Origin: a bacterium | GTDB lineage: Bacteria; ARS69 | Length of the DNA: 64,000 nt | Assembly (NCBI GenBank): GCA_965216835.1 | Contig: OZ244210.1 | Span: forward strand, 237,907-301,906 | Direction: 5' to 3' | Shown here: positions 15,365 through 60,018 of the stretch, in pieces | How positions within the stretch are numbered: the first letter of the stretch is position 1 | How the letters are laid out: every line of letters begins with the position of its first letter | Position numbers and translations under genes: made by a program | The notes under the pieces: generated by a model | The model's input: only the letters and a program-made list of their open reading frames with translations | Told to the model about the DNA's origin: nothing | Database searches by the model: none

Positions 15365-17694
<2,330 letters not shown>

Positions 17695-17698
<4 letters not shown>

Positions 17699-18240
17699 GA
17701 GCGGGAGGGCGGAGCGCCGCAGGTGCTGCGTCGCTGGTCCTGCTGCTCCTCGTCGGCTGCTCCGGCCGCGATGCTTCCCCGCCCGCGCCAGTCTCCCGCG
17801 AAGTGAACGTCTACTTCCATCGCGAAGGCGAGTGCGACGTCCAACCGTTTCCACGGACCGTCACCGCCGCGCAGCCCATCGACTTCGCGCGCGCGGCCCT
17901 GGAGTCGCTGCTGGCGGGACCGCACGAGGACGAGGTCGCGCAGGGATTCCGCTCCGCGCTGCCGGACTCGCAGACGGTGCGGCGCCACTTCCAGAGCCAT
18001 CTGGCGTTCGGAATGGACCCCGGTCACGACGGCGGATCGCTCGGGATCCTCGGCGTGGAGGAGGCCGGGAACCGCCTGCTGCGCGTGAACTTCAGCCGGG
18101 AGATCGAGGCGTACGGCGACGGCGAGGAGCGGCTCTGTCCGTTGATGCGCCAGATCCAGGCGACGGTCCGCCAGTTCGACGAGTACACGGATGTCCTGAT
18201 CCAGGTCGACGGGAAGTCGCGGGGGGTGCTGCAGCCCTAG
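17695..18240 (+). CDS. GerMN-domain lipoprotein
   Basis: The GTG at 17695 overlaps the uvrD stop (GTGA). The lipobox is 'LLLLVGCSG'. 'VNVYFHREG...ARAALESLLAGP...GFRSALP' is a GerM-like layout. Confidence 0.65.
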
Positions 18241-18326
18241 GGATGGCTCTGACATCCGCGCGCCCCTGGTCGCATTGCTTCAATTGATGCTATCGTCCCG
18301 TAGTTGAGTGTGAGGGCGAGCCTGAG

Positions 18327-21257
18327 ATGATATTCGTTTGTCATAGGCGCTCGGACGCTGATCCGTTTGTGGACCGTCTGGCGAGCGCGTTGGAGGGGCG
18401 ATTCGGGCATGAGGCTTCGTTCGCCGACATCAGGCACCTTCAACCCGGCGACCAGTGGGCTGAGGAACTGGATCAAGCGCTCGCGATCGCAAAGGTCGTG
18501 CTTGTAGTCATCGGCACGAAGTGGGACCAACTGCGCTTCCACGACGGTCGGTATCGGGGGTTCCCTCGACTGCACGACCCGTCCGACGTCGTCCGAAGAG
18601 AGATACTTGCATCTCTGGCGAGAGGCCGCGACGTCCGCCTTGTTCCAGTGCTGGTCGATAGGGACGTCCTGCCGAACCGGGACTGGTTGAAGAATTTTGG
18701 CCTCCAAGATCTTCACAGATTTCAGGCGATTTTCGTCCGGTCTGAGTCGCTTGATAGCGATATCGAGTATCTGCTTGAGGAACTGGGTCGGATCAACGGG
18801 CCGGCTGCGACGCCCAGCCGGGCACAGCAGGATTCTCCAAAGGTCTGGATTCCTCACGCTGGACATGTCCTTCAGCGCGCGCCGCATTTTGAAGGACGGT
18901 ATGATCTGAGAAAGGAGCTCACGCAGTGGGCGATGTCGACGGCCACGAGTTGCAGAGTGCACGGCATCGTGGCTCCAGGGGGAACCGGAAAGACCGCGGT
19001 CGTCGAGTGGGTGCTCAGACAGGTTGCAGTCAACCCCGCCGCGGGCGTCTTCGTCTGGTCGTTCTACGCAAGTCAGCACACAGAGGCCTTCATTCGGTCC
19101 GCGATCGAGTACTTCGGTGAGGGGTCTGTCGACGGTTCGGCCCCACCGACTCTTGAGATGCTCCAGACACTGTTGTCAGGCCACCATCCGCACCTACTCA
19201 TCCTGGACGGCATGGAACTGGTCCAAGCAGAGCGTCCCGGTCGTGTGCACGGCTCGTTTCAGGATTCTCTCCTAAGGCGACTCCTGCGTTGGATCGCAGC
19301 CGGGATCGGGACTGGCTCGCGAGCCCTTATCACAACTAGGTTTCCGCTTGTTGACTTGGGTGATTGGCTCGGCACAAGTGTCAAAGAGATCAGGCTCGAG
19401 GATATCTCGGTCCGGGTGGGGATCCAAGTGCTTCGGGCCTGGGGCGTCATCGGTACCGAGAGCGAACTCCGGGAGGTTCTAGTGCCGCTACAGGACCCTA
19501 GGACCGATAGAGTCCATGCGCTCACAACGGCTGTGATCGGATCGTATGTGGGCAAGATGTGGGGAGGAGACCCGAGTAAGGCGCCGACGCTCAGTAAGGG
19601 TTTTCTGGCTCAGGACACTCAGGGCAACAAGCTCACGAAAGTACTGACAAGCTACGCGGACGCACTGAGCCCGTTGGATCGCGACATACTGTCGCGTCTC
19701 TCGATGTTCCCACATGGCATTGGAGTTCGCCTGCTCGAGCAGCTGGCCAAGAGTGGGGGCGAAGTGGCAGGCTCGTTGGTCGGTGCTGACTCGCTCCAGC
19801 TCCGAGATGCGCTGGCCAAACTCCGACACCTCGGTCTGGTCTTTCAAGCCGGCACTGCGACAGACTCCACCTACACAGCTCATCCTTTTCTCCGCTACTA
19901 CTTCTCTCAGATCCACGGTTTGGAGGATCCGACCAGCGTGCCTGAAGAGGTCCGAAGACTCATGGCCCTCGAACTGGATAGGCGTCCAAGTACTCGGCCG
20001 TGGAGCAGCGAAGAGCTGGACCGGTACGAATCGCTGATCGAGGCGACACTACTGGCCGGAGACATTGGCGGCGCCTATCAGCTCTACGCATCACGATTGG
20101 GAGGATTTCGACATGTCGGATGGAAGCTGGGAGCGTATTCACGCGGAGACCGGGTCGCGTCTAGGATCCAGGAAGCAAATGAGGGCAGCCACCCGGGGAA
20201 GGGACTGGGGGCAGGGGAGGAGGCACAACTCCTCGAGGACTGCGGGGCGTTCTCGGCTGAACTGGGGAACCTATCGCGCGCGCTGGAGCTCTTCGAGCTC
20301 CAGCGAACGAGGGCGGAGGACAACGGGATTCCTAGAGCGCTCAGGCGCGGCAGCCTGAATGTGTGCGACGTCCTTGCCCAGCGTGGGGAGTGGGCGAGCC
20401 TGCAGGACATCGCCCGGAGTGTGATGGCGAGATCGGCGTCGTCGGATGCAAGAGACGACAGGGAGATCGCACTTGTCTCGCTCGGTAGCTCTTGGTTCTG
20501 GATGGGTGAAGTTGCTCGAGCGGATGACTTGTTTGAGGAGGCGGAGGCGATTGAGGAACGAGAACTCTACTCTCGGCGCGGCGTCGCTCTCCTGGATTCG
20601 CTGCTGGCGACGGGCCATTGGGATATTGCGGAAGCGCGATGCAAGGCCAATCTAGAATACTGCAAGGAGCGAGGGTGGCTTGATGACGTAGCATTGTGCG
20701 AGTCCGTCATGGGTTGGTGTACCCTAAGGCGGGACGCAGTGACGGCGAGCACGCACCTGGGACTGGCGCGCCAGTACGCGAATCGCACCGGCCACACCGA
20801 GACCTCTTTGCGTTGCTATCAACTCGCTAGCGCTGTCGCTAGGCAAGGGGTTCGTTTGAAGGACGCCGTGTTTGAGGGTCGCAACGGGATCGAGTTGGCT
20901 AAGTCGTGCGGCATGCACAGGTGGGAGTTGGCTCTTCGATTGGAACTAGCAAGGACGTATCGAACGTTGGGGAAGTTCGAGGAAGGCGTTGAGGAAGGCC
21001 TTTTCGTTCAAAGCGCGGCGGAAGATCCAGCGGCAGGCGACTGTTGGATGTCCCTCATCGCGCTGCACTTGGTCGGATCGTGCAACGTGGAGATGGGCCG
21101 CACGATGGAGGGGGAGCGACAGAGGAATCTCGCGATCGCCAGACTTAAGCAGATCCTCCCAAAGGGAGCACTTGAGCGTCGACGGCGCAAGTTTGGCGGC
21201 AGCGCGAATCGGGACCATGGATCAGATATCGGACTGCTGGAGCTGCTCGGAGAGTAG
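18327..21257 (+). CDS. TIR - NB-ARC (STAND NTPase) - TPR protein; candidate antiphage/NLR-like sensor-effector
   Basis: TIR-like N-terminus: 'MIFVCHRRSD', 'PGDQW', 'SDVVRREILASL...VRLVPVLVD'. NB-ARC: 'FEGRYDLRKEL', P-loop 'APGGTGKTA' (18972-18998), Walker B 'HLLILDGME' and 'GSRALITTRF'. The C-terminus is ~450 aa of TPR-like helical repeats. GC is markedly lower than in the flanks. Confidence 0.8.
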   Translation: MIFVCHRRSDADPFVDRLASALEGRFGHEASFADIRHLQPGDQWAEELDQALAIAKVVLVVIGTKWDQLRFHDGRYRGFPRLHDPSDVVRREILASLARGRDVRLVPVLVDRDVLPNRDWLKNFGLQDLHRFQAIFVRSESLDSDIEYLLEELGRINGPAATPSRAQQDSPKVWIPHAGHVLQRAPHFEGRYDLRKELTQWAMSTATSCRVHGIVAPGGTGKTAVVEWVLRQVAVNPAAGVFVWSFYASQHTEAFIRSAIEYFGEGSVDGSAPPTLEMLQTLLSGHHPHLLILDGMELVQAERPGRVHGSFQDSLLRRLLRWIAAGIGTGSRALITTRFPLVDLGDWLGTSVKEIRLEDISVRVGIQVLRAWGVIGTESELREVLVPLQDPRTDRVHALTTAVIGSYVGKMWGGDPSKAPTLSKGFLAQDTQGNKLTKVLTSYADALSPLDRDILSRLSMFPHGIGVRLLEQLAKSGGEVAGSLVGADSLQLRDALAKLRHLGLVFQAGTATDSTYTAHPFLRYYFSQIHGLEDPTSVPEEVRRLMALELDRRPSTRPWSSEELDRYESLIEATLLAGDIGGAYQLYASRLGGFRHVGWKLGAYSRGDRVASRIQEANEGSHPGKGLGAGEEAQLLEDCGAFSAELGNLSRALELFELQRTRAEDNGIPRALRRGSLNVCDVLAQRGEWASLQDIARSVMARSASSDARDDREIALVSLGSSWFWMGEVARADDLFEEAEAIEERELYSRRGVALLDSLLATGHWDIAEARCKANLEYCKERGWLDDVALCESVMGWCTLRRDAVTASTHLGLARQYANRTGHTETSLRCYQLASAVARQGVRLKDAVFEGRNGIELAKSCGMHRWELALRLELARTYRTLGKFEEGVEEGLFVQSAAEDPAAGDCWMSLIALHLVGSCNVEMGRTMEGERQRNLAIARLKQILPKGALERRRRKFGGSANRDHGSDIGLLELLGE

Positions 21258-21266
21258 CGGTGGACG

Positions 21267-22343
21267 TCACCAGCTCTCCGGCAGCTCCACCACCCACGCC
21301 ACCTGAGGATCCACCTTCCGCCGCGACACGCGCTCGTCGAACACGAGGACGACGCTTCGACCCTCCTCGAACCAGTCCATCCCTTCCCAGTTCTCGTGGC
21401 GGATCACTTCCGGAAGGACGTCGTCGAGATCGAGCGGCTCGCCCACCGGCGTTCCGTCGACGCGGAAGCGCTGCAGCCACTTGTAGCACCAGCGCAGCGG
21501 CTTGCCGGCGATCTCCTTGGGACAGAGCTCGGCGGGACCGGGCGTGCTGAGGGCCTCGTAGCCGGAGCTGAGCAGCACCAGGAATCCCCACTCGTCCCCG
21601 TCCAGGCGATGCCACACGAGGTCCGGCGCTCGGAACCGCTGCGCCGACGGCTCCACGCCCGGCGGCACCGGTACCTGCAGCTCCACGTCCACGGCGGCCT
21701 GATCCGGATCAAGGCCGATGCCGCGTTCGCCGGGGGCGATGTCGTGGACGATGACCCGCGGCTTCAGCGCGTGGCCGTCGAGGAACGCTCGCGCTCCGGT
21801 GGGCGTCGACGGTCCGACGGGGTAGCCGCCCTCCCACAGCACCGCCACGCGCGACGTGCCGCCCGGCATCGGGCGGGCGGCCAGGCCCTCGGCACCGCGC
21901 CCGCCCAGTTCCGCGAACCCGGAACCGTAGACCGCCACGAGTCCCTCGGCATCCACGAGCGCGCCGAGCCGCTCGGACAGCAGCACGACGCGCCCGTCCG
22001 TCAGCACCTCGATCGACTCCAGATCCATGGCGTAGTCGCCGGCCGGGATGCGATGTCGCGTGAGTCGCGACTTGCCCAGCGGGATGCGCCCCGGCGGATC
22101 GTCGCCGGCCGGGGCCGGATCGTCCGGCGAGAGCTCCGCCGTGTAGTACGTTCCGGGTTCGTGGTCGCCGACGATGAGCAGTCGATCGCCGTCCCGCACC
22201 ACCCCCGACGCCTCCTCGATGCCGATGAACTGCTGATCGGCTCCGGCCGTCAGGTGGGCGGCGGGGGGAGAAGGAGCGGGCGAGCAGGACGACAGGATCC
22301 CCAGGCCCAGCAGCATCGCGCCCCGGTCGATCCGGATGGTCAC
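21267..22343 (-). CDS. Hypothetical lipoprotein (possibly phytase-like/DUF3616-type beta-propeller)
   Basis: The start is either the GTG at 22343 (GTGA overlap with the upstream stop) or the ATG at 22316. The lipobox is 'LGLGILSSC'. The rest is a beta-rich sequence with host codon bias. The remainder of the 701-aa track ORF is a shadow of glpK. Confidence 0.55.
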   Translation of the reverse strand: MTIRIDRGAMLLGLGILSSCSPAPSPPAAHLTAGADQQFIGIEEASGVVRDGDRLLIVGDHEPGTYYTAELSPDDPAPAGDDPPGRIPLGKSRLTRHRIPAGDYAMDLESIEVLTDGRVVLLSERLGALVDAEGLVAVYGSGFAELGGRGAEGLAARPMPGGTSRVAVLWEGGYPVGPSTPTGARAFLDGHALKPRVIVHDIAPGERGIGLDPDQAAVDVELQVPVPPGVEPSAQRFRAPDLVWHRLDGDEWGFLVLLSSGYEALSTPGPAELCPKEIAGKPLRWCYKWLQRFRVDGTPVGEPLDLDDVLPEVIRHENWEGMDWFEEGRSVVLVFDERVSRRKVDPQVAWVVELPESW

Positions 22344-22793: not shown

Positions 22794-24242
22794 ATGCGCG
22801 TGCTCGCCGTCGATCAGGGGACCACCGGCACCACCGCCGCCATCTTCGACCGCGAGGGGCGGCAGGTGGCGAAGGCCTACCGCGAGTTCACCCAGCACTA
22901 CCCGAAACCGGGCTGGGTGGAGCACGACGCGGAGGAGATCTGGCGAACCGTCGTGGAGACGGTGGAGGAGCTCCTGGAAGCGTCGCCGGGGCCCGTGGCC
23001 GCGGTGGGCCTGACGAACCAGCGCGAGACGACGATCCTCTGGGACCGCGAGACGGGGAAGCCGGTGCACCGGGCGATCGTCTGGCAGTGCCGGCGGACGA
23101 AGGAGCTCTGCGAGGCGCTGGCCCCGCACGCCGATCTCTTCCGACATCGCACCGGTCTGCCGCTGGACGCGTACTTCTCCGGCACGAAGATCCGCTGGCT
23201 GCTGGACCACGTCGACGTGGATCCCGCCCGGCTCGCGTTCGGGACGGTGGACTGCTGGCTCGTATGGAAGCTCACCGGCGGCGCCGTCCATGCCACGGAT
23301 CCCACGAACGCGTGCCGCACGCTTCTCTACGACATCCGCGATCTCTCGTGGTCGGAGGAGCTGGCCGGACACCTCGGCGTTCCCACGTCGATCCTTCCGG
23401 AGGTCCGTCCGTCCATCGGCGACTTCGGAACGGTGAGCACGATTCCCGCGCTGGAGGGGGTGCCGATCGCCGGCATCGCGGGCGATCAGCAGGCCGCGCT
23501 GTTCGGGCAGACCTGCTTCGACGCCGGCTCCATGAAGAACACGTACGGCACCGGCTGCTTCGCGCTGCTGAACACGGGGCAGGAGATCATCGACTCGTCC
23601 GAGGGGCTGCTCACGACGGTGGCGGTCGCCGGCGACGGTTCGCCGTGCTGGGCGCTGGAGGGATCGGTGTTCATCGCCGGTGCCGCCGTGCAGTGGCTCC
23701 GCGACGAGCTAGGTCTCATCGAGCACGCGGCGGAGACGGAAGCCGCGGCGCGCGCCGTGGACGACGCCGGCGGCGTGTACCTCGTGCCGGCGTTCGTCGG
23801 GCTGGGCGCGCCTTACTGGGACATGGACGCGCGCGGCGCGCTCGTGGGCCTCACGCGCGGCAGCCACCGCAACCACGTGATCCGGGCCACGCTGGAGTCG
23901 ATGGCGTACCAGACCGCCGACGTGATGCACGTGATGGAGAAGGAGGCCGGCGTGACGCCGGATCGGCTCTCGGTGGACGGCGGGGCCGCGGCCAACGACT
24001 TCCTGCTGCAGTTCCAGGCCGACGTGCTGGGCGTGCCCGTGGTGCGCCCCGCCATCCTTGAGGCGACGGCCCAGGGTGCGGCCTACCTGGCCGGACTGGG
24101 CGCGGGCGTCTGGAAGGACGCGGCGGAGCTGTCCGCGAAGCATCGCGTGGAAGCGGAGTTCACGCCGGACGGCAACGAGACGCTGCGCGCCGAGCGACTG
24201 GAGGGCTGGGCGCGCGCGGTGCGGCAGGCGCGGACGCGGTAG
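22794..24242 (+). CDS. glpK: Glycerol kinase
   Basis: 'MRVLAVDQGTTGTTAAIFDREG', 'YPKPGWVEHDAEEIW', 'GLTNQRETTILWDRETGKP', 'AIVWQCRRT', 'NTYGTGCF' and 'VDGGAAANDFLLQFQADVLG' are present. An AGGAGGGA Shine-Dalgarno sequence lies at 22783-22790. Confidence 0.95.
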   Translation: MRVLAVDQGTTGTTAAIFDREGRQVAKAYREFTQHYPKPGWVEHDAEEIWRTVVETVEELLEASPGPVAAVGLTNQRETTILWDRETGKPVHRAIVWQCRRTKELCEALAPHADLFRHRTGLPLDAYFSGTKIRWLLDHVDVDPARLAFGTVDCWLVWKLTGGAVHATDPTNACRTLLYDIRDLSWSEELAGHLGVPTSILPEVRPSIGDFGTVSTIPALEGVPIAGIAGDQQAALFGQTCFDAGSMKNTYGTGCFALLNTGQEIIDSSEGLLTTVAVAGDGSPCWALEGSVFIAGAAVQWLRDELGLIEHAAETEAAARAVDDAGGVYLVPAFVGLGAPYWDMDARGALVGLTRGSHRNHVIRATLESMAYQTADVMHVMEKEAGVTPDRLSVDGGAAANDFLLQFQADVLGVPVVRPAILEATAQGAAYLAGLGAGVWKDAAELSAKHRVEAEFTPDGNETLRAERLEGWARAVRQARTR

Positions 24243-24288
24243 CGATGAGCCGTCGCCCGGACCGACCCCGTTCCCGGACCACGGTCCG

Positions 24289-25317
24289 ATGCTGACCCTC
24301 GAGGAGATCCTGGCCGCGGCCGGCGATGATGCGCCGTCCGGCGAGTCGCTGGGCCGCTCGCGCGAGGGGCGCGAGATCGTCGGCCACCGGTTCGGCGCGG
24401 GGAGCCATCGCGTGAGCCTGATCGCCGGCTGTCACGCGGACGAACCGACCGGTCCGCGGCTGCTGCGCGCGCTGGTCCGGGCGCTGGCGGGCCTTCCGGC
24501 CGCGCACGGCGCCCGGGCCGATGTGTCCTGGTGGATCGTCCCGCATGTGAACCCCGACGGCGAGGCGCGCAACGCCGCGTGGCAGCGCTCCGGCGCGGCG
24601 GCCCCGGATCTCGTCGACTTCCTGCGCCACTCCGAACGCGAACCGCCGGGCGACGACGTGGAGTTCGGCTTCCCGCGGGACGACGCGGACGACGGCGCCC
24701 GTCCGGAAACCGTCGCCGTGCGCGAGTTCTGGAAGCGCGCGGGGGGGCCGTTCCACCTGCACGCCTCGCTGCACGGGATGTCGATCGCCGGGGGCGCGTA
24801 CTTCCTCCTCGATCGCACGTGGATCGACCGGACGGAGGAGCTGCGCGAGCGATGTGTCGCCGCAGTCCGCGAGCTGGGCTACCCACTCCACGACGTCGAC
24901 CGGGGCGGGGAGAAGGGCTTCACGCGGATCGCGCCCGGCTTCTGCACGCGTCCCGACTCCCGCGCCATGGCGGGCCACTTCGAACGGCTCGGCGACGCCG
25001 CCACCGCCGCGCTCTTCCGGCCGTCGTCCATGGAGGCGATCCGCGCACTCGGCGGCGACACGCTCACCCTGGCCTCGGAGATGCCGCAGTTCCTCGTCCC
25101 CGACCTCGGCGGCGATGCGGCGGCCTCGTCCGGGAAGATGACCGCCTGGCGGGACCGGCTCTCGGTCTGGCGGGCGAAGGTCGATCGGCCGGGTGGCGAC
25201 GCGGAGGTCCGGTCGGAAGCGAAGTCGGCCGGCGTGCGGGCGATGCCCATCGTCGACCAGATGCGGCTCCAGTGGGCGATGGTGCTCGCGGGACTGGACG
25301 CCTCGCGCCTCCCTTGA
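24289..25317 (+). CDS. M14-family zinc carboxypeptidase-like protein
   Basis: 'IAGCHADEPTG' (HxxE zinc motif) and 'WWIVPHVNPDGEARN' are present. The start is the ATG at 24289 (MLTLEEIL). Confidence 0.65.
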   Translation: MLTLEEILAAAGDDAPSGESLGRSREGREIVGHRFGAGSHRVSLIAGCHADEPTGPRLLRALVRALAGLPAAHGARADVSWWIVPHVNPDGEARNAAWQRSGAAAPDLVDFLRHSEREPPGDDVEFGFPRDDADDGARPETVAVREFWKRAGGPFHLHASLHGMSIAGGAYFLLDRTWIDRTEELRERCVAAVRELGYPLHDVDRGGEKGFTRIAPGFCTRPDSRAMAGHFERLGDAATAALFRPSSMEAIRALGGDTLTLASEMPQFLVPDLGGDAAASSGKMTAWRDRLSVWRAKVDRPGGDAEVRSEAKSAGVRAMPIVDQMRLQWAMVLAGLDASRLP

Positions 25318-25345
25318 CCCGTTTGGCGCGTGTCCTGGGACCTTG

Positions 25346-25374
25346 TTGCAATCAGCGGGGATTCGCGACATTGT
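25346..25374 (+). promoter_or_regulatory. Weak sigma70-like promoter candidate upstream of the stand-alone TIR gene
   Basis: TTGCAA (25346-25351), a 17-nt spacer, then CATTGT (25369-25374), about 58 nt upstream of the GTG at 25432. This is a motif match only, and promoter consensus in this lineage is unknown. Confidence 0.2.
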
Positions 25375-25431
25375 GACCGGTTCGACCCGGAAGCTCGGCT
25401 ACGCGTGGACACCAAGAAGAAGGGCATCGTC

Positions 25432-26376
25432 GTGAAGGTCTTTATCAGCTGGTCGGGCAAGGACGGGCAGAGGCTTGCCGAGATCCTGCGGCGGACCATT
25501 CCCTCGGTCATTCAATCGGCCCAACCATGGGTATCGGCGGAGGACATCGGCGCAGGTCGCGCTTGGAACGATGACCTCAGGCAGGCCATGGAGGACGCCG
25601 ACGCCGCGATCATCTGCGTGACCCATGCCAAGGAGTCCCAGTGGCAGATGTTCGAGGCGGGCGCGTTGATGTGCGGCTCGGGGCGACGCCCGGTGATTCC
25701 GCTGGTTCTCAAGGGCAAGCTCAAGTCTCTCCCTCCTCCGCTGAGGCAGTTCCAGGTCGTTCGCTGCGACCGTAGAGGACTCCTCGAGCTCTTCAAGGGC
25801 TTGAACAAGAGACGAGTGCCGCAGCCGATCGCTGAGACCGTGCTGTACCGGATGTTCCAGGCGGAGTGGCCGTTTCTTTGGGAAGCCCTGCACAAGCTGC
25901 GGGGCGGGTTCGATACGAGAGAGGCACCGCTGGCTGCCGTTCATCCCTACTCAGGGAACTGGTGCTTCCGTGGAACGTGTCGGGTGCCGGAAGGACAATC
26001 CGCGCAAGAAGTGGAGTCCGTAACGTGGAGTGGTGATCTGGACCTCTTTGTGAGCGCGAGTCGGGCGCTCTTTTCCGGAACTCTTCACAGTGAACTCCGC
26101 CTCGAAGGCGGAGAGACTCCGGGCACGGTCTACACCGCGGCCCGCCTCAGGACCTTGAAGATGACGGCCGGCCAGGTCACTCTCGAGTTCGACCAACGTC
26201 TGGCGGACTGGCTGTCGGCGGCCCCGGCCGGGGAGCGCGCGGAGGGAGTCGTGCAGCGCATCCAACTCGAGCTCAAACCTCGGCCCGAAGACTACTTGAC
26301 CCGACTGTCGGGGACCTTTTCCCTCGAAGGGACTCTCGGAGTCTACGAAGGGAAGGTTCGGTTCCGAAAGGCGTGA
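25432..26376 (+). CDS. Stand-alone TIR-domain protein with unassigned ~170 aa C-terminal domain
   Basis: 'KVFISWSGKDGQRLAEILRRTIPSVIQSAQPWVSAEDIGAGRAW...AAIICVTHAKESQWQMFEAGAL' is the bacterial TIR_2-type signature (FISWSG ... W..FEAG). The GTG at 25432 is preceded by the purine-rich AAGAAGAAGGG. The ATG at 25330 is an alternative start. GC is lower than in the flanks. Confidence 0.75.
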   Translation: MKVFISWSGKDGQRLAEILRRTIPSVIQSAQPWVSAEDIGAGRAWNDDLRQAMEDADAAIICVTHAKESQWQMFEAGALMCGSGRRPVIPLVLKGKLKSLPPPLRQFQVVRCDRRGLLELFKGLNKRRVPQPIAETVLYRMFQAEWPFLWEALHKLRGGFDTREAPLAAVHPYSGNWCFRGTCRVPEGQSAQEVESVTWSGDLDLFVSASRALFSGTLHSELRLEGGETPGTVYTAARLRTLKMTAGQVTLEFDQRLADWLSAAPAGERAEGVVQRIQLELKPRPEDYLTRLSGTFSLEGTLGVYEGKVRFRKA

Positions 26377-26439: not shown

Positions 26440-27924
26440 ATGCAGCCCGTCGCGCTGACCGCAAGTTCCGCAAACGATCACAGGTTGCCTCCCGGAGAGA
26501 ACCGGCACGTGACACAGAGACCGAAGCGCGCGTCTTTGGACCCTGACGTCGAGGAGATGCGCCGCGTCGGCTACGCGGCCGTCGACCGCATCGTGAAGCA
26601 TCTCGGGACGCTGGAGGAGCAGCCGGTCGCGAGACGCGGCACCGCGGCCGAGTTCGCGGCGCTTGTCGACGAGCCGCTGCCCGAGACCGGTCGCAGCCTG
26701 GACGACGGCCTCCGCTTCCTGTTCGACCGGGCGATCCCGCCGATGACGCGCGTGAACCATCCGCGCTTCCACGCCTACATCCCGTGCCCGTCCAGCTTTC
26801 CCGGCGTGGTGGGAGAGATCGTGGCGGCGGGAACGAACCCGTTCCTGGGAAGCTGGCTGGGCGGCGCGGCGCTGGGGTCGATGGAACTCACCGTGCTGCG
26901 GTGGATCGCGGAGCTCGTCGGCTACCCGAACGATGCGGCCGGACTGCTGACCAGCGGCGGCTCGCTGGCGAACCTGTCGGCGCTGGCGTCGGCGCGTGCG
27001 CGATTCGGCGAGGAGACGATGCAGCGCGGCGTGATCTACGTCTCCCGCGAGGGTCACGCGTCCATGGACAAGGCGGCCGTCGTACTCGGCTTTCCTCCGG
27101 ACGCGATCCGCGCGATCGACGTGGACGATCGGATGCGGCTGCGGATCGATACGCTGCGGGAGGCCGTGTCCGCCGATCGTGCGGCGGGGCGGCTTCCGTT
27201 CTTCGTCTCGGCCAACGCCGGCACGACCAACACCGGAGCCGTCGATCCGCTGGAGGACGTCGCGGGTTTCTGCGCGGCGGCGGATCTCTGGATGCACGTC
27301 GACGGAGCGTACGGCGGCCTCGCCGCGCTGGACCCCGACGCGAAGCGTCTCCTGGCCGGAATGGAGCGCGCCGATTCCCTCACGCTCGATCCGCACAAGT
27401 GGCTCTACGCCCCGATGGGCTGCGGCTGCGTGCTCGTGCGGCGCGCGGAGTTCCTGGAGCGCGCCTTCACCGCCCACGGCGACTACCTGCGCGACCTGCC
27501 CGGCGACGAGGTGAACTTCCTGAACCGCGGCGTGGAGCTGTCGCGGCCGGCGCGCGTGATTCCCGTGTGGATGGTGATCCGCTCCGCGGGACGCGCGGGA
27601 CTGGCGGCGCAGGTGACGGAGGATCTTCGCCTGGCGCGTCTGGCGGCGGATCTCCTCGCGGAGGACGATCGCTTCGAGCTGGTCGATCGGCCGCAGCTCT
27701 CGGTCGTGGCGTTCCGGCACCGCGCGCGCCCCGGTGAGTCCGAGGAAGATCGGGCGGCCCGCGATCAGGCGCTCATGGAGGCCACGCTGGCGGACGGCGC
27801 GCTGATGCTCTCCACCACGATCACCGGCGGCCGGACCGTTCTGCGCATGGTGGTCATGAACCATCGCACGTCGGAGGAGCACGTGCGCTTCAGCGTCGCG
27901 AGGATCCGGGAGCTGGCGGAGTGA
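26440..27924 (+). CDS. Pyridoxal-phosphate-dependent group II amino-acid decarboxylase
   Basis: 'SGGSLANLSALASAR', 'HVDGAYGG' and 'SLTLDPHKWLYAPMGCGCVLVR' (PLP-lysine motif) are present. The start may instead be the GTG near 26509. Confidence 0.85.
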   Translation: MQPVALTASSANDHRLPPGENRHVTQRPKRASLDPDVEEMRRVGYAAVDRIVKHLGTLEEQPVARRGTAAEFAALVDEPLPETGRSLDDGLRFLFDRAIPPMTRVNHPRFHAYIPCPSSFPGVVGEIVAAGTNPFLGSWLGGAALGSMELTVLRWIAELVGYPNDAAGLLTSGGSLANLSALASARARFGEETMQRGVIYVSREGHASMDKAAVVLGFPPDAIRAIDVDDRMRLRIDTLREAVSADRAAGRLPFFVSANAGTTNTGAVDPLEDVAGFCAAADLWMHVDGAYGGLAALDPDAKRLLAGMERADSLTLDPHKWLYAPMGCGCVLVRRAEFLERAFTAHGDYLRDLPGDEVNFLNRGVELSRPARVIPVWMVIRSAGRAGLAAQVTEDLRLARLAADLLAEDDRFELVDRPQLSVVAFRHRARPGESEEDRAARDQALMEATLADGALMLSTTITGGRTVLRMVVMNHRTSEEHVRFSVARIRELAE

Positions 27925-29399: not shown

Positions 29400-30686
29400 C
29401 TACTCCTTCGTCCGGAAACGAGACTTGATGTTCGCCCAGGAACTGTCCTCGACGGACACGGTTCCGCAGCCGACGCCGTAGGCACCGATCCGGCCGCAGG
29501 ACGGAGCGTTCTCCTCGGCGCAGGGAGACGTGGAGCGGAGCGTGTAGTCATCGTTGGGGACGTCGCAGAACTGGGGGTCGACGAAGAGGTCGTTCGGTCC
29601 CGGCGTGTAGCTGGAGTGGGCGTCCCCCGAGTTGGCCCAGAAGACGTTGCAGTCGCCCGCTCGAATCTCTCTCGTCGCATGGTAAGCGGTGCCGCCGGAG
29701 CCGAGCGCGAAGATGTTGCGGGTCGCCAAGACGCCGCCTCCGAGCACGCGGTCCAGAACAGCCGTGCCGATGGGCGCCTCGTTTCCGACGAACGTGTTGC
29801 CGGAGTATTCGCCCGGGTCGAGGATCATCAGGCCGCCGCCGCCCGTCGTTGCGCGGTTTCGCAGGAACAGGTTGCCATCGACCACAGCCGGCTCCGAGTT
29901 GGCACTGATGACGAGTCCGGCTCCCAACTCGGCGGTGTTCTCGATGAATCGGCTGTTCGTGACCACGGCCGGATCCACGCCAACGACCGCCAGCCCGCCC
30001 GCTTGGATTCCGAAGTTGTTCCGGAAGACGCATCCCGTCACCAGGATATCCCCGCCCCCCCGCGCGAGCATCGCGGTAGGGCCGCACTCCTCGAAGATCG
30101 AGTCGCGGACGACCGTCCGGCTGTCGCCCGTACCGTTCGCCTTCATGGCGCCTGCCTCCAGGGCGGCCGTACAGCGAACGAACTCGCAGCCGATCACTTC
30201 CAGCGAGCCGCCGTTCTGGGCAAGCCCCGCGGCCGCGTTCGACGATGTTTCGACGTCCACCACGCGGCAGTCCACCACGCTCATGTTCCAGCAGTTCACG
30301 AAGGCCATCCCCCGTGCGTTGGCCACGGTTGTTCGCATCTCGAACCCCTCGACACGTGCCCCGCCCGTTCCGATGCCGTCGCCCCCGACGACCCGCAGGC
30401 CGGAAGACGGACCTCCCTCCACGAGTTCCAGCAGGGTCACGTCCGGGCCGCCCTCCGACAGAAGCGTCAATCCCTCGAAGATGTCCGCAACGCGAGCAGT
30501 ACAAGGACCGTCGTCGCAGTTCGTATAGACTCCTGGAGCCACGAGCACTGTGTCGCCCGCGACCGCCGACCCGATCGCGCTTGCGATCGACGGATACGCG
30601 TCAGGGACCCTCAACGTAGCTGCATCGGCTTGATCCCCAACGGCGAGAAGCCCCGCAAGTCCCCAAATGAGACGTGTCCACTTCAT
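29400..30686 (-). CDS. Secreted right-handed parallel beta-helix repeat protein (pectate-lyase-fold)
   Basis: The start is 'MKWTRLIWGLAGLLAVGDQADA' at 30686. 'GDTVLVAPGVYT' is followed by repeated ~22-aa G/N/V-rich turns ('NCWNMSVVDCRV', 'VTGCVFRNNFG', 'VTNSRFIENTA', 'VDGNLFLRNRA'). The C-terminal tail is 'VSVEDSSWANIKSRFRTKE'. Confidence 0.7.
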   Translation of the reverse strand: MKWTRLIWGLAGLLAVGDQADAATLRVPDAYPSIASAIGSAVAGDTVLVAPGVYTNCDDGPCTARVADIFEGLTLLSEGGPDVTLLELVEGGPSSGLRVVGGDGIGTGGARVEGFEMRTTVANARGMAFVNCWNMSVVDCRVVDVETSSNAAAGLAQNGGSLEVIGCEFVRCTAALEAGAMKANGTGDSRTVVRDSIFEECGPTAMLARGGGDILVTGCVFRNNFGIQAGGLAVVGVDPAVVTNSRFIENTAELGAGLVISANSEPAVVDGNLFLRNRATTGGGGLMILDPGEYSGNTFVGNEAPIGTAVLDRVLGGGVLATRNIFALGSGGTAYHATREIRAGDCNVFWANSGDAHSSYTPGPNDLFVDPQFCDVPNDDYTLRSTSPCAEENAPSCGRIGAYGVGCGTVSVEDSSWANIKSRFRTKE

Positions 30687-30883
30687 CGGGAAAGCCTCAC
30701 GATCTTCGTGGTGAAGGACTGATCTCCCGCCCGGAACCGTACGAAATAGATAGCAATCGCCATCACCTGCTTCAATCCGCTCGACTGACGGCCTCCGCGG
30801 ATGTTGTTGACGGGTGGCCCAAGGGAGGCCCTGCCTTTCCACGGCATCGCACCCGTGCTACCGTCCGCCTCCGGGAGGACGGA

Positions 30884-32017
30884 ATGGCCAAGCTGGAAGC
30901 CGGTCGGCAACCCACGACGTACTGGAACTACCTGAACCTGGAGGAGCTGCTCTCGCTGCAGGGCGGAGTCTCCGGGGACGAGAAGGACCTCACGCCGGAC
31001 GAGGTCGTCTTCATCGTCGTGCACCAGGTCTACGAGCTCTGGATGAAGCTCATGCTCCGCGACCTGGAGGCCGCCCGCGACCTCTTCGCCCAGGATCCCG
31101 TCCCGGACGACGCCATGGGCGAGGCCTCCCGCAAGCTGGCCCGCGTGCGCACGCTGCTGGAGCTGGCGGCGGAGCACTTCCGCGTGGTCGAGACGATCAC
31201 CCCGCGCGACTTCCTCAACTTCCGTGACAACCTCTTCCCGGCCAGCGGCGGACAGTCGATGCAGTTCCGCGAGCTGGAGATCCTGCTGGGGCTGGAGGAG
31301 GAGGAACGGATCCCGTACGTCGGGCAGGGCAGCTACCGTGACGTCCTCCGCGAGCCGGACGGTTCGGAGAGCTGGGTGCTGAAGCGCGTGAACGCGCGCT
31401 TGGCCGATCGGCCGAACCTGCGCGAGGCCATCGACGAGTGGCTCTTCCGCACGCCCATCGACGGTTCTCGTCCGGACGCGGCTGACGACGAGCGCGTGGT
31501 CACGCAGTTCGTCGAGGACTATCTGGAGGCGCACGGCCGGGCCATCGCCGACCTGATGACGCACATCCGCGGCTTCGTGCAGACGGACGCGGAGGCGTCG
31601 CAGCTCCAGCGTCGCTACGAGAAGGAGCGGGAGGCGGCGGCCGCGTTCCTCCGCGCCGAGGACGAACCGGGAGCCACCCGACCGCGCCGCCGCCGAATCC
31701 GCGCCGCCGCACTCTTCCTCGAGGTGTACCGCGAGCTCCCGCTGCTGGCGTGGCCGCGCGAGATCGTCGATGGACTGGTCTCGGTGGAGCAGGCCTACGT
31801 GATCTTCCGCCAGCGGCACGCGCGGATGGTGGAGCGGATCATCGGCCGGCGCGTGGGCACCGGCGGCTCGCGGGGCGTGGACTTCCTGGACGAGGGCGCG
31901 CAGAAGTACCGCGTGTTCAAGGACCTCTGGGCCGCGCGCACGCTGCTCGTCCGCCGGGACCTCCTGCGGGGCCCGCACCGCGCGGACCTCTACGGTTTCC
32001 AGTTCGACGGGAAGTGA
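30884..32017 (+). CDS. kynA: Tryptophan 2,3-dioxygenase (long form)
   Basis: 'TYWNYLNLEELLSLQ', 'DEVVFIVVHQVYELWMKLML', 'TPRDFLNFRDNLFPASGGQSMQFRELE' and 'GTGGSRGVDFL' are present. A GGGAGGA Shine-Dalgarno sequence precedes the ATG at 30884. Confidence 0.85.
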   Translation: MAKLEAGRQPTTYWNYLNLEELLSLQGGVSGDEKDLTPDEVVFIVVHQVYELWMKLMLRDLEAARDLFAQDPVPDDAMGEASRKLARVRTLLELAAEHFRVVETITPRDFLNFRDNLFPASGGQSMQFRELEILLGLEEEERIPYVGQGSYRDVLREPDGSESWVLKRVNARLADRPNLREAIDEWLFRTPIDGSRPDAADDERVVTQFVEDYLEAHGRAIADLMTHIRGFVQTDAEASQLQRRYEKEREAAAAFLRAEDEPGATRPRRRRIRAAALFLEVYRELPLLAWPREIVDGLVSVEQAYVIFRQRHARMVERIIGRRVGTGGSRGVDFLDEGAQKYRVFKDLWAARTLLVRRDLLRGPHRADLYGFQFDGK

Positions 32018-58280: not shown

Positions 58281-59728
58281 GCGCGCGTCGGCGCAGGAAG
58301 GCGAAGGGCGGCCGATCGGCGTCGCGGCCGCGCCGGAAGATCCGGTGGGGGGCCGTCGTCGCGATCCTCGCCGGGGTGGGCGTCGCGGTCGGAGTCGCCC
58401 TGCGGGATCGATCGCCCGAGGCCGACCCGCCGCCGCTCGCAGTGACCGAGGTTCGCGAAGGCGGTGTGACCGTCGCGGTGCTGGACGAGGTGGCGCTCAC
58501 GAACTGGTGCCGCCGCCACGACCTGCCGGATCCTCCCGGCGTGCGCGAGGTGGAACCGGACTTCGCCGCCATCTTCCTGCAGGCGCTGGAGTCCGTCGCC
58601 GTCGAGCGGTCCGCCGAGGCGTTCGGGACCGTCGGGATGCTCTGCGAGAGCATGGAGTCGCACGGCGTGGCCGAGGAGTACTTCGCCCGCGCCGAAGGGG
58701 AGGATCCGCTGGATCCGCGCTGGCCGTACTACCTCGGCTGCCTGTTCCAGGTGACCGGCCGCAACGATGAGGCGCGTGCGGCGCTGGAGCGTTCGCGCGA
58801 GAGGGACGCCGCCTACCCGATGCTCCACGGCCGGCTCGGGCAGCTCGCGCTGGAGGCAGGGCGCCTGGACGAGGCCGACGCGCATTTCGACGAGTACGAG
58901 CGGCTGCGCCCGGACGACGGGTTCGGGCGGCTGGGCAAGGCGCGCGTGTCGATGCGTCGCGGCGAACCGGAGACGGCGCTGGCGAATCTGGAGGCGGCCG
59001 GGCAGCGTGGCATGCGGGACTTCCAGTTCCTGCGCACGCTGGGGAGCGTGTACGCGGCGCTCGGTCGGGAGGACGACGCGCGCCAAGCGTTCGCCGCATC
59101 GGACGGATTGCCGCAGGGACTGTGGTACCGCATCCGGGATCCGAGGGACCAGGCGCTGCACGAGGTCGGCTCTCCGGTGGCGGCGCTCCAGTCCGAGTTC
59201 GAGCGGAGGGGAAGCAGCGGTGACTGGGCGGCGCTGGCGGATCTCGCGGAACGCATCCTCGAACGTCGCCCGGCCGACGTGCGGACGATGGGCAACCTCG
59301 TCGGCCTCTACCGAAAGCTGGAACGCTACGACGATGCGCACGCGATGCTGGACCGGGCGTTCGCAACCGGCGGCGACGAGCTCCGGCTGAACCTCCTTCG
59401 TTCCGAGACCTACCTGGCCGCGGGCGAGTACGCGGCGGCGCGCGAGGCGGCGGACCGCGCCCGGACCCTGGAGAAGGAGTCCCCCCGGGTGTGGAGCCTG
59501 CTCGGCCGCGCGCTGCTCATGGAGGGTCGAACCGCGGACGCGGAGGCCGCGATGCTCCGGTCGCTGGCTCTCGCGCCGGACGACGTGTCCAATCTCCTTG
59601 TGCTGGGTGAGGTCCGCCGGATCGCGGGGGACCCGGAGGGAGCCGCCGCGGCCTACCGTGACGTCCTGAAGCTGGAGGACAACCTCGTCGCGCGTCAGCG
59701 CCTTGATCAAATCGTCACAAGCGAGTGA
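58277..59728 (+). CDS. Membrane-anchored TPR-repeat protein (partner of the ASPIC/UnbV gene)
   Basis: The GTG at 58277 overlaps the upstream stop (GTGA). A basic N-terminus precedes the TM 'WGAVVAILAGVGVAVGVAL'. The remainder consists of multiple TPR-like 34-mers. Confidence 0.75.
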   Translation: MSARRRRKAKGGRSASRPRRKIRWGAVVAILAGVGVAVGVALRDRSPEADPPPLAVTEVREGGVTVAVLDEVALTNWCRRHDLPDPPGVREVEPDFAAIFLQALESVAVERSAEAFGTVGMLCESMESHGVAEEYFARAEGEDPLDPRWPYYLGCLFQVTGRNDEARAALERSRERDAAYPMLHGRLGQLALEAGRLDEADAHFDEYERLRPDDGFGRLGKARVSMRRGEPETALANLEAAGQRGMRDFQFLRTLGSVYAALGREDDARQAFAASDGLPQGLWYRIRDPRDQALHEVGSPVAALQSEFERRGSSGDWAALADLAERILERRPADVRTMGNLVGLYRKLERYDDAHAMLDRAFATGGDELRLNLLRSETYLAAGEYAAAREAADRARTLEKESPRVWSLLGRALLMEGRTADAEAAMLRSLALAPDDVSNLLVLGEVRRIAGDPEGAAAAYRDVLKLEDNLVARQRLDQIVTSE

Positions 59729-59893
59729 CGCTTCTGATCTTTCGCAGGGTTTCCCGGGCTTGTGACGGGAATCCTTGAGTTGGATGATCGAGATCGCTAG
59801 GATGCTCAGCAGGGAGGACGCCGGGCTGAGCCCGAGGTCCTTCACCCTCAGGCTCCCTCCCCCCTGTCTTCATCCCGGCGTCCGGGCCCTCGT

Positions 59894-59909
59894 GTGCCCA
59901 GATGGGCAC
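59894..59909. promoter_or_regulatory. 16-bp palindrome GTGCCC-AGAT-GGGCAC in the 290-bp intergenic leader upstream of 60019
   Basis: Perfect 6-bp inverted arms with a 4-nt spacer were read directly from the sequence, 110 nt upstream of the ATG at 60019. This could be an operator site or an RNA stem; the function is unknown. Confidence 0.25.
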
Positions 59910-60018
59910 GCGACATTCACGGTCGGCGCCGGCTACGTGCGGAGGGGCGAGACGTCGTCCTTCGTACGTGTGAGGGGGATCCGTCGCCGCCGACCCATTC
60001 CTCTGGGGAGGCGGGTCC

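Follow-up and report, generated by a model that had tools for sequence, protein, structure and literature searches.

A TIR-STAND-TPR protein encoded on a foreign chromosomal segment as a candidate single-gene anti-phage receptor

Prokaryotic STAND proteins have been divided into 589 clades, 198 of which are defense-associated; most defense STAND sensors are tetratricopeptide repeat (TPR)-like, and Avs proteins sense phage proteins (PMC13581612). TIR domains found in Avs proteins or in standalone genes are regarded as effectors that deplete NAD+ (bioRxiv 10.64898/2025.12.03.692087). Single proteins combining a TIR domain with TPRs, with or without an ATPase, defend Escherichia coli, and this defense needs the TIR active site (PMC11350192). 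Thus, neither single TIR-ATPase-TPR proteins nor TIR-bearing Avs/STAND proteins are new to the literature (PMC11350192, PMC13581612). In this study, we analyzed a 64,000-nucleotide window of bacterial DNA (contig OZ244210.1; all positions are those of the window unless a related locus is named) and, within it, a gene at 18327..21257 on the plus strand that encodes a TIR domain, a STAND nucleoside triphosphatase (NTPase), and a TPR-like sensor in one polypeptide of 976 residues. With a probability of roughly 0.65, we consider this TIR-STAND-TPR protein to be a self-contained NLR-like (Avs-like) anti-phage receptor that depletes NAD+ and was acquired horizontally as single-gene cargo. This reading is supported by the catalytic and nucleotide-binding residues of the protein, the swapping of effectors within its family, its solitary context, and its accessory status.

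Architecture and family of the TIR-STAND-TPR protein

The open reading frame (ORF) at 18327..21257 begins with ATG and comprises 976 codons and a stop codon, as claimed in an earlier inspection of the letters alone (hereafter, the sequence-only reading). The motifs quoted in that reading were all found where it had placed them: MIFVCHRRSD at residues 1–10, SDVVRREILASL at 86–97, VRLVPVLVD at 103–111, FEGRYDLRKEL at 188–198, APGGTGKTA at 216–224, HLLILDGME at 289–297, and GSRALITTRF at 330–339. Likewise, E92 is encoded by GAG at 18600..18602, and the codon for K222 begins at 18990. The ATG start is supported because homologs also begin with MIF(I/V), and the probability that a frame of 976 codons stays open by chance at the local composition is about 1.6e-15. 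The full-length AlphaFold model had a predicted local distance difference test score (pLDDT) of 87.9 and a predicted template modeling score (pTM) of 0.79. The proposed effector-switch-sensor arrangement of three modules was borne out by the profile and fold matches of the TIR domain, the STAND motifs, and the TPR-like C-terminus.

The TIR domain (residues 1–156; 18327..18794, plus strand), the predicted NADase effector, was recognized by Pfam TIR_2 over residues 2–130 (50.5 bits, cutoff 28; E=3.5e-13). When nine TIR modules were aligned, F3, D10, L22, G27, G41, W44, E92, and P107 proved invariant, and the profile built from this alignment matched the SARM1 TIR end to end (E=4e-10). E92 is placed opposite SARM1 E642 ('hdpeDvvrrEi' vs 'HDCKDWVHKEI', by residue count along chain 6o0u), and R7-R8 correspond to SARM1 R569-R570 in 'FISYRR'. 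The earlier proposal that E92 is the equivalent of the catalytic glutamate is therefore supported both by its invariance in 9/9 TIR modules and by its alignment with SARM1 E642. The isolated TIR domain was modeled with a pLDDT of 80.7, and a Foldseek search with this model placed the SARM1 TIR (TM 0.73–0.83, root-mean-square deviation 2.6–3.9 Å) closest, together with other enzymatic NADase TIRs; the further fold matches were AbTir (with a substrate analogue), SPARTA TIR-APAZ, TIR-1, RPS4, L7, and MAL. The assignment of the N-terminus as a TIR domain is thus upheld by profile and by fold. It is followed by a linker (residues 157–189; 18795..18893, plus strand) that is partly disordered, with pLDDT below 50 at residues 159–168.

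Residues 63–87 of the TIR domain (18513–18587), between beta-C and alpha-C, were modeled with low confidence and form a stretch about 9 residues longer than that of SARM1. A motif, GxxRLHDP, within this stretch is common to the six closest TIR homologs and absent from the distant homologs P0025, P0037, and P0087. Among solved structures, PDB 9m0n and 9umd are of an 824-aa 'Tetratricopeptide repeat protein' with an N-terminal TIR; 9m0n matched the TIR profile (E=9e-4) and did not match the NTPase profile, and this protein may be a TIR-TPR defense protein that lacks a STAND module.

The STAND nucleotide-binding domain (NBD) spans residues 190–350 (18894..19376, plus strand). Its Walker A motif or P-loop, APGGTGKT (residues 216–223, including K222; 18972..18995, plus strand), and its Walker B region, HLLILDGME (residues 289–297, including D294 and E297; 19191..19217, plus strand), were read directly from the sequence, and they provide the STAND patterns GxxxxGK[ST] (as APGGTGKT) and hhhhD (as LLILD). 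Conservation was evaluated in homolog alignments that contained 23–51 sequences depending on the alignment (A1, A2, A4, and A5). G219, G221, K222, W244, S245, F246, L293, D294, G295, E297, Q300, and R338 were invariant across homologs, so that GxGK of the P-loop is fully retained. The features that were invariant or at least 90% conserved were GGTGKT (K222), WSFY, LLILDGxE (D294 and E297), Q300, TTR (R338), HAL, and HP. No alignment showed variation at L293, D294, or G295; the same held for E297 in A1, A2, and A4, with conservation of at least 90% in A5. The claim of a STAND NTPase with an intact P-loop and Walker B is well founded, as both are near-invariant in the 23–51 homologs. The NBD is followed by the helical and winged-helix domains (HD and WHD; residues 351–535; 19377..19931, plus strand), in which H397 lies in 'HAL' at the GLPL-equivalent position and H519-P520 occupies the MHD-equivalent position. 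H397 did not vary in A1, A2, or A5; H519 and P520 did not vary in A1, and their conservation in A2 and A5 was at least 90%. The order NBD-HD-WHD, arm, and repeat sensor, with a conserved WHD histidine, is present in the model, which aligns with PH0952, Apaf-1, CED-4, and NRC4. The WSFY motif (W244-Y247; 19056–19067), located immediately after strand beta-2, is invariant or nearly so across the NTPase clade; to our knowledge, it coincides with none of the named STAND motifs.

The NTPase had been called NB-ARC-type in the sequence-only reading, and this label did not hold at the level of family profiles. Pfam NB-ARC (PF00931) gave no match to the protein at E<=1, and NB-ARC was also absent from the precomputed Pfam domains of 90 homologs and from the 25 families listed for 51 clade members. 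Pfam NACHT (PF05729) remained below threshold (22.0 bits vs a cutoff of 26.7), AAA_22 being the other best NTPase model. Among the 51 best clade representatives, NACHT was matched by 28 at E<1e-3, with a best E of 6e-8, AAA_16 by 25, and NPHP3_N by 6. The NB-ARC Walker B has the form hhhhDD(V/I)W. In the present protein, Walker B is HLLILDGMELVQ (LLILDGME, a D-G-h-E pattern) and lacks this form, with D294, G295, E297, and Q300 conserved.

By fold and by sequence profile, PH0952 was the nearest solved relative, ahead of NB-ARC proteins. The full-length model matched PH0952 (6mfv) with E=2e-12 over 787 columns and Apaf-1 with 1e-9, followed by CED-4 and NRC4, and no NACHT NLR appeared among the best 50 structural matches. 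When solved structures were searched with the NTPase-only profile, PH0952 (6.6e-9) was followed by ZAR1 (2e-5), Roq1 (3e-3), Apaf-1 (7e-3), Sr35, NRC, and MLA13, the E-values for NB-ARC proteins being modest (2e-5 to 0.02); NOD2 (0.05), NLRP, and Avs4 (8dgf; 0.72) ranked lower. The PH0952 and APAF1 clades are reported to be sisters, MalT occupying a basal position (PMC6468293). These results indicate that the NTPase is a STAND protein of an unnamed clade whose family assignment is ambiguous, and that 'NB-ARC-type' is a fair description of structural resemblance rather than a demonstrated membership.

The arm and the TPR-like alpha-helical repeat sensor occupy residues 536–956 (19932..21194, plus strand). 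In the AlphaFold model, this region of about 420 aa contains 22 helices, which from residue 629 on pair into eight regular hairpins, each about 40 residues long. The family profile matched the TPR regions of LGN/Pins, AfsR, and MalT with E-values down to 5.6e-18, and Foldseek also returned TPR matches. The earlier description of the C-terminus as TPR-like is thus supported by helical hairpins, profile, and fold; it found no support in the Pfam TPR models, all of which scored below their cutoffs. The sensor is the least conserved module, with 21–35% identity to TIR-bearing homologs, and the NBD is the most conserved, with 48–54%. Such a gradient is expected for a diversifying sensor.

A word-indexed search with the full protein returned 90 matches, the best with 44% identity. 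An exhaustive search with the NTPase profile returned 30,201 representatives at E<=1e-3, 8,377 at E<=1e-10, and 3,288 at E<=1e-30, in which the start of the NTPase ranges from residue 2 to about residue 670. The possibility of a rare orphan family, which the 90 matches might suggest, is ruled out by the 3,288 representatives at E<=1e-30. The N-terminal heads of the 51 best clade members were DUF4062 (19), TIR_2 (6), CHAT (4), HTH_3 (3), PNP_UDP (2), kinase, and EAD5/EAD11, and SIR2 and caspase heads were also found on the NTPase-TPR chassis among the 90 homologs. The nearest paralogs (P0007–P0014) have the same NTPase-TPR chassis but are headed by DUF4062 instead of TIR. DUF4062 is a TIR-like NADase that acts in abortive infection and, beside a NACHT ATPase, in human TEP1 (PMC13174449), so the nearest paralogs swap one NADase for another. 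The distribution of the family is patchy, and in the contexts of four homologs, each gene stands alone among unrelated housekeeping genes, with no common neighbor.

From these sequence relationships, we tentatively suggest, as a possibility that we ourselves regard as doubtful, that the family may be one STAND lineage with interchangeable NADase heads, whose chassis would correspond in prokaryotes to the DUF4062-NACHT-TPR/WD40 proteins of animals (NPHP3, TEP1, and NWD1/2). The suggestion draws on the frequency of DUF4062 (19/51) and NPHP3_N (6/51) and on an NTPase that is ambiguous between NACHT and APAF1-like; the human DUF4062-NACHT proteins have been described with an 'APAF-1-like helical domain' (PMC13174449). 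If it is true, the bacterial protein would be a tractable model for the switching on of TEP1/NPHP3-type NADase-STANDs.

Foreign composition, insertion site, and neighboring genes

The gene is foreign in composition, as the sequence-only reading had claimed from counts made by hand, which proved to be exact (32/60 G+C at 18661 and 42/60 at 18061). The sliding-window GC content (GC) was 0.59–0.61 over 18250–21250 and 0.69–0.74 on either side, and the GC of the segment 18241–21266 was 0.603 vs 0.704 in the 10-kb flanks. GC at third codon positions was 0.67 in the gene vs 0.86–0.95 in host genes. The codon adaptation index (CAI), for which 16 host genes served as the reference, was 0.336 vs 0.720 +/- 0.032 for the host, i.e., about 12 standard deviations (SD) below. 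AT-rich codons were frequent, with TTT, TTG, ATA, and AAA at 13.3, 17.4, 3.1, and 3.1 per 1000 in the gene vs 1.5, 1.0, 0.1, and 0.5 in the host, respectively; together with AGA and TAT, these codons were enriched 6- to 30-fold.

The GC of 0.60 resembles that of genomes in which the DUF4062-headed paralogs look native, the values for these paralogs and their flanks being 0.61 vs 0.60 at locus L084 and 0.58 vs 0.545 at locus L085. The closest homolog of the TIR-STAND-TPR protein (P0002, 44% identity; locus L001, 10001–12940) is also encoded by a solitary gene, with a GC of 0.645 vs 0.718 in its flanks. The low GC of P0002 for its site, together with the match of the DUF4062 paralogs of L084 and L085 to their hosts, suggests repeated transfers of the TIR-headed subclade into genomes of high GC.

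The foreign segment was delimited by DNA homology to empty sites as 18241–21266 (3,026 bp), because homology to the empty sites stops at the stop codon of the upstream gene, as seen with two related loci (L086 and L082), and restarts at the stop codon of the downstream one. These bounds are identical to the interval given in the sequence-only reading. The left border is a host gene outside the insert, which encodes a GerMN-domain lipoprotein of 181 aa (17695..18240, plus strand; Pfam Germane 48.3 bits; lipobox LLLVGC). The right border is another host gene outside the insert, which encodes a convergent lipoprotein of 349 aa (21267..22316, minus strand) and has orthologs beside uvrD/GerMN in relatives. 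Thus, the gene lies 86 bp downstream of the GerMN lipoprotein gene and 9 bp from the convergent lipoprotein gene, in agreement with the flanks described earlier. The 86-bp upstream non-coding part of the segment (18241..18326, plus strand) has a GC of 0.54–0.59 and shows no alignment to the intergenic sequence at the empty sites; it presumably contains a promoter and ribosome-binding site belonging to the gene itself. At the right end, the segment closes with a 9-bp spacer between the stop codon and the convergent gene (21258..21266).

To compare synteny, we used six related loci (L082, L083, L086, L087, L088, and L089), which were obtained from the downstream lipoprotein on metagenome contigs and from UvrD homologs. 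At L086 (UvrD 77% identical), uvrD is followed by the GerMN gene, about 50 bp, and the convergent lipoprotein gene, and at L082 (72%) by the GerMN gene, about 158 bp, and the lipoprotein gene. At L087 (70%) and L083 (68%), a NAGPA gene and then the lipoprotein gene follow; at L089 (68%), the lipoprotein gene follows directly; and at L088 (69%), synteny is lost. Orthologs of the 349-aa lipoprotein with 52–58% identity adjoin uvrD/GerMN in L082, L083, L086, L087, and L089. The TIR-STAND gene was present at this site in 0/5 syntenic relatives (UvrD 68–77% identical). Its absence from this site in the five syntenic relatives identifies the gene as an insertion specific to the lineage, placed between two convergent lipoprotein genes. 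The sequence-only reading had named syntenic conservation as a core gene and a GC plot with no dip among the outcomes that would overturn it; neither was observed, as the gene is absent from 5/5 syntenic relatives and GC falls over the segment.

The slot between uvrD and the lipoprotein gene varies among these loci: it holds the GerMN lipoprotein gene in the window, L082, and L086, a gene for a NAGPA phosphodiester glycosidase in L083 (2957–3799) and L087 (9310–10143), and nothing in L089 (9265–9392). The uvrD gene of the window (15365–17698; Pfam UvrD-helicase) lies upstream of the GerMN gene, whose GTG start overlaps the uvrD stop by 4 bp (17695–17698). This overlap makes co-transcription and translational coupling of the pair probable. 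The closest UvrD orthologs (77%, 68%, and 64% identity), including GJM44860.1, bear the name Gemmatimonadota, and the host lineage is therefore most likely Gemmatimonadota.

Our searches likewise detected none of the mobility signals whose absence had been noted earlier: the window contains no tRNA, genes for integrases or transposases are lacking within about 10 kb, and direct or inverted repeats bracketing the segment occurred only at chance level. A search of the whole window for Rfam families gave no match. The TIR-STAND-TPR family was found on no phage record, and plasmid records gave one weak partial match, a Calothrix WD40 NTPase with 23.6% identity over 31% of the query. No relative of the protein was found among the 2.9 million IMG/VR viral contigs, and matches in the viral structure library were limited to generic TPR/AAA ones. 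With no phage record, one weak plasmid match, and no viral contig, there is no support for an origin on a phage or plasmid. We infer that the gene arrived by homologous recombination through the conserved flanks after DNA uptake from a relative. Such recombination would leave no scars, and the varied contents of this slot in related loci (GerMN, NAGPA, or nothing) are consistent with it.

The genes downstream of the convergent lipoprotein gene are glpK (22794–24242), an M14 peptidase gene, and, beyond these, a gene for a pyridoxal phosphate (PLP)-dependent decarboxylase (26440–27924). The other genes within ±10 kb are housekeeping genes, encoding glycosyltransferases, an Omp85/PD40 protein, DUF6265, and tryptophan dioxygenase. 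PADLOC matches within ±10 kb were generic and at the fold level (UvrD to the GajB/DRT helicase and the decarboxylase to SspA/DndA). No effector gene was found within ±10 kb of the TIR-STAND-TPR gene, nor was a Thoeris-type operon with a signal-activated effector, the neighbors being only the genes for the GerMN lipoprotein, the lipoprotein, glpK, the M14 peptidase, and the PLP decarboxylase. The statement that the gene has no adjacent partner was accurate for the immediate neighbors. It had missed a second TIR gene, located in its own low-GC islet 4 kb downstream with three host genes between.

This second TIR-domain gene (25330–26376, plus strand) encodes 348 aa, matches Pfam TIR_2 with 46.5 bits, above the cutoff, and lies in a low-GC patch at 25.4–26.4 kb (GC 0.63), with a CAI of 0.43. 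PADLOC 'TIR-TM' matched it (E=2.5e-37) over the TIR half only, and no obvious transmembrane segment was found in the unassigned C-terminal portion of about 155 aa. The two TIR genes were considered as paralogs or partners, and BLASTP (E=0.27) ruled out paralogy. The region around the second gene is another variable slot: in the window, the genes for the convergent lipoprotein and the decarboxylase are separated by glpK, the M14 peptidase gene, and the second TIR gene (22794–26376), and the lipoprotein-to-decarboxylase interval of L087 (10205–12726) has just two small ORFs, without these three genes. The occurrence of two independent TIR-type cargo genes within 8 kb suggests that this chromosomal stretch tolerates insertions. 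Two more patches with a GC of about 0.63, at 30401–31100 and 59701–60700, are situated at or near the 5′ ends of host genes (the tryptophan 2,3-dioxygenase gene at 30674–32017 and an ORF at 60019–61131, respectively); their appearance is that of intergenic or promoter DNA and not of islets.

Proposed mechanism and rival explanations

If the TIR-STAND-TPR protein is an anti-phage receptor, it would, by analogy with PH0952, MalT, and Apaf-1, rest as a monomer in which the arm and the TPR-like sensor keep the NBD closed. Clamping of the NBD by an arm and a TPR sensor has been described as the mode of autoinhibition of PH0952 and MalT (PMC6468293). As with Avs families, the trigger may be a phage-derived protein that binds the fast-evolving TPR-like solenoid (residues ~536–956). 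Autoinhibition would then be released, and the NTPase (K222, D294, R338, and H519), which has the necessary motifs and the predicted activity, would bind ATP and drive oligomerization. SARM1 is activated by oligomerization. In the present protein, oligomerization would cluster the SARM1-like TIRs, whose fold and glutamate are seen in the model and alignments, into composite active sites around E92, and the predicted chemistry there is the hydrolysis of NAD+, which would be depleted. The infected cell would halt growth or die before phage release, i.e., undergo abortive infection. No second gene would be needed, and the finding that homologs share no neighbor and that no effector gene lies within ±10 kb argues for the self-sufficiency of the protein.

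Several observations weigh against the anti-phage receptor. In the TIR domain, the tryptophan at position −4 from the catalytic glutamate (WxxxE; SARM1 W638) is replaced by Val88 ('DVVRRE' vs 'DWVHKE'), and Cys5 stands in place of the conserved serine of 'FISY' in beta-A. Position −4 is tryptophan in 3/6 of the closest TIR homologs and V or C in the rest, including the two nearest full-length homologs. The very low CAI of the gene (0.34) suggests weak expression. No sigma-70 consensus was found in the 86-bp upstream part, and no promoter or terminator consensus was found for the gene. No defense island surrounds it, its neighbors being housekeeping genes apart from the second TIR gene. A PADLOC search with the protein matched no Avs, bNACHT, or TIR-NLR model in the 2023 library, which does not contain Avs7–21 of PMC13581612, and gave four weak matches (about 1e-4), all to the TIR segment. 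Furthermore, the kinase- and HTH-headed members of the NTPase clade may be ordinary signaling proteins.

The last point bears on the alternative that the protein is a non-immune signaling STAND, in which the TPR senses an endogenous or environmental ligand and the TIR serves as a regulated enzyme or a scaffold, so that processes such as stress-induced or developmental cell death or NAD metabolism would be regulated. Not only are there many kinase-headed and XRE-HTH-headed proteins in the same NTPase clade, but PH0952, its closest relative of solved structure, is a predicted MalT-related transcription factor (PMC6468293), defense and non-defense STAND clades are interspersed (PMC13581612), and the gene itself is located among housekeeping genes. 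However, the foreign composition and the absence from 5/5 syntenic relatives argue against a core physiological role, the distribution is patchy with a best homolog that is just 44% identical, and the effectors of the closest members (TIR, DUF4062, CHAT, caspase, SIR2, and PNP) form a cell-suicide set. We regard a non-immune function as unlikely, while ranking it above the other alternatives. A silent or decaying recent cargo, with an ORF that is intact yet poorly expressed or catalytically impaired and that makes no present contribution, would account for the CAI of 0.34 (12 SD under the host genes), the lack of a recognizable promoter or terminator, the W-to-V change at −4 from the catalytic glutamate, and the cysteine in place of the usual serine in beta-A. 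This is the least probable of the explanations considered, as the 976-codon frame is unbroken (P about 1e-15 by chance) and the invariant family residues are all kept in the TIR, NBD, and WHD. V or C at the tryptophan position is shared with the two nearest full-length homologs and is therefore a trait of the subclade and not a lesion. In addition, defense genes are commonly expressed at a low level.

The TIR might also produce a signal, as in Thoeris and plant TNLs, by making a messenger of the cyclic-ADP-ribose (ADPR) or His-ADPR type that switches on an effector encoded elsewhere. The closest structural relatives of the domain include AbTir and SARM1, both of which can cyclize ADPR; plant TNLs, which have the same modular logic, act by signaling; and Val88 in place of the catalytic-pocket tryptophan could alter the product specificity. 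Nevertheless, no candidate effector is adjacent to the gene here or in the four homolog contexts, and a mobile single-gene cargo cannot depend on an unlinked partner. The DUF4062 of the nearest paralogs gives only ADPR and nicotinamide (PMC13174449), and TIRs of Avs proteins and standalone genes are taken in the field as depleting effectors (bioRxiv 10.64898/2025.12.03.692087). Signal production thus appears improbable, and we favor NAD+ depletion by a self-contained receptor.

The TIR-STAND-TPR gene opens no new category, since TIR-STAND-TPR defense proteins, their modularity, and the NAD+-depletion mechanism are established. It provides a clean, self-contained case of effector-switch-sensor immune logic moving as one gene into a poorly studied phylum, and its precise borders and matching empty sites make it a useful case for the spread of defense genes without recognizable mobility machinery. 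If active, the protein would add a TIR-headed member to a large, mostly unnamed STAND clade. The exchange of TIR and DUF4062 on one chassis represents a natural experiment on interchangeable NADase effectors.

Comparison with known systems

Thoeris pairs the ThsB TIR with a linked effector, and in this respect it differs from the present locus, which has neither a linked effector nor a neighbor conserved in homologs. The bNACHT proteins (Kibby et al. 2023) also differ, as the NACHT score of the protein was 22.0 bits vs a cutoff of 26.7 and no bNACHT/NLR-like model of PADLOC was matched. The plant TNLs Roq1 and RPP1 share the TIR-NTPase-repeat logic, and NB-ARC proteins are the next-best solved relatives after PH0952. 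Unlike plant TNLs and other NB-ARC proteins (Apaf-1, CED-4, ZAR1, and NRC), the present protein has no Pfam NB-ARC match, has a Walker B of LLILDGME vs hhhhDDVW, carries a TPR-like sensor and not leucine-rich repeats or WD40, and has no downstream helper pathway.

The TIR domain resembles those of SARM1, AbTir, and SPARTA in its end-to-end profile match, the correspondence of E92 with E642 and of R7-R8 with R569-R570, and TM values of 0.73–0.83. It differs from the SARM1 TIR in sequence (20–22% identity), in V88 vs W638, and in the longer segment of residues 63–87. In SARM1 and SPARTA, the TIR is mounted on SAM/ARM or Argonaute scaffolds, whereas here it would be driven by a STAND NTPase. The DUF4062-NACHT proteins, i.e., the bacterial Swarozyc-type proteins and human TEP1, NWD1, NWD2, and NPHP3 (PMC13174449), are similar in that the nearest paralogs bear DUF4062 on the same chassis; the protein itself has a canonical TIR_2, no DUF4062, and no NPHP3_N match.

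PH0952 of Pyrococcus horikoshii (PDB 6mfv) was the best match both in structure (E=2e-12, TM 0.50, 787 columns) and in the NTPase sequence profile (6.6e-9). It has the same NBD-HD-WHD-arm-TPR order and is the source of the double-autoinhibition model, but it carries an ArsR-type DNA-binding effector as a predicted transcription factor, and the identity is about 11%. The TIR-II systems of E. coli, which consist of TIR and TPR, about 30% of them with an ATPase (PMC11350192), have a similar content of TIR, ATPase, and TPR and can be one protein. In the tested TIR-II systems, the TIR active-site residues were required for defense (PMC11350192). Their hosts and sequence families differ from those of the present protein, the likeness being one of domain content.

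Avs/AVAST proteins (Gao et al. 2020, 2022; Lee et al. 2026, PMC13581612) differ in that no PADLOC Avs model matched the protein and its NTPase profile reached Avs4 only at E=0.72. Similar to the TIR-STAND-TPR protein, they combine a suicide effector, a STAND NTPase, and a large TPR-like sensor in one polypeptide, swap effectors on a conserved chassis, are encoded by horizontally mobile accessory genes, and are in some cases TIR-headed. Their order of effector, STAND, and a sensor of at least 400 aa is also that of the present protein, in which the sensor comprises about 420 aa.

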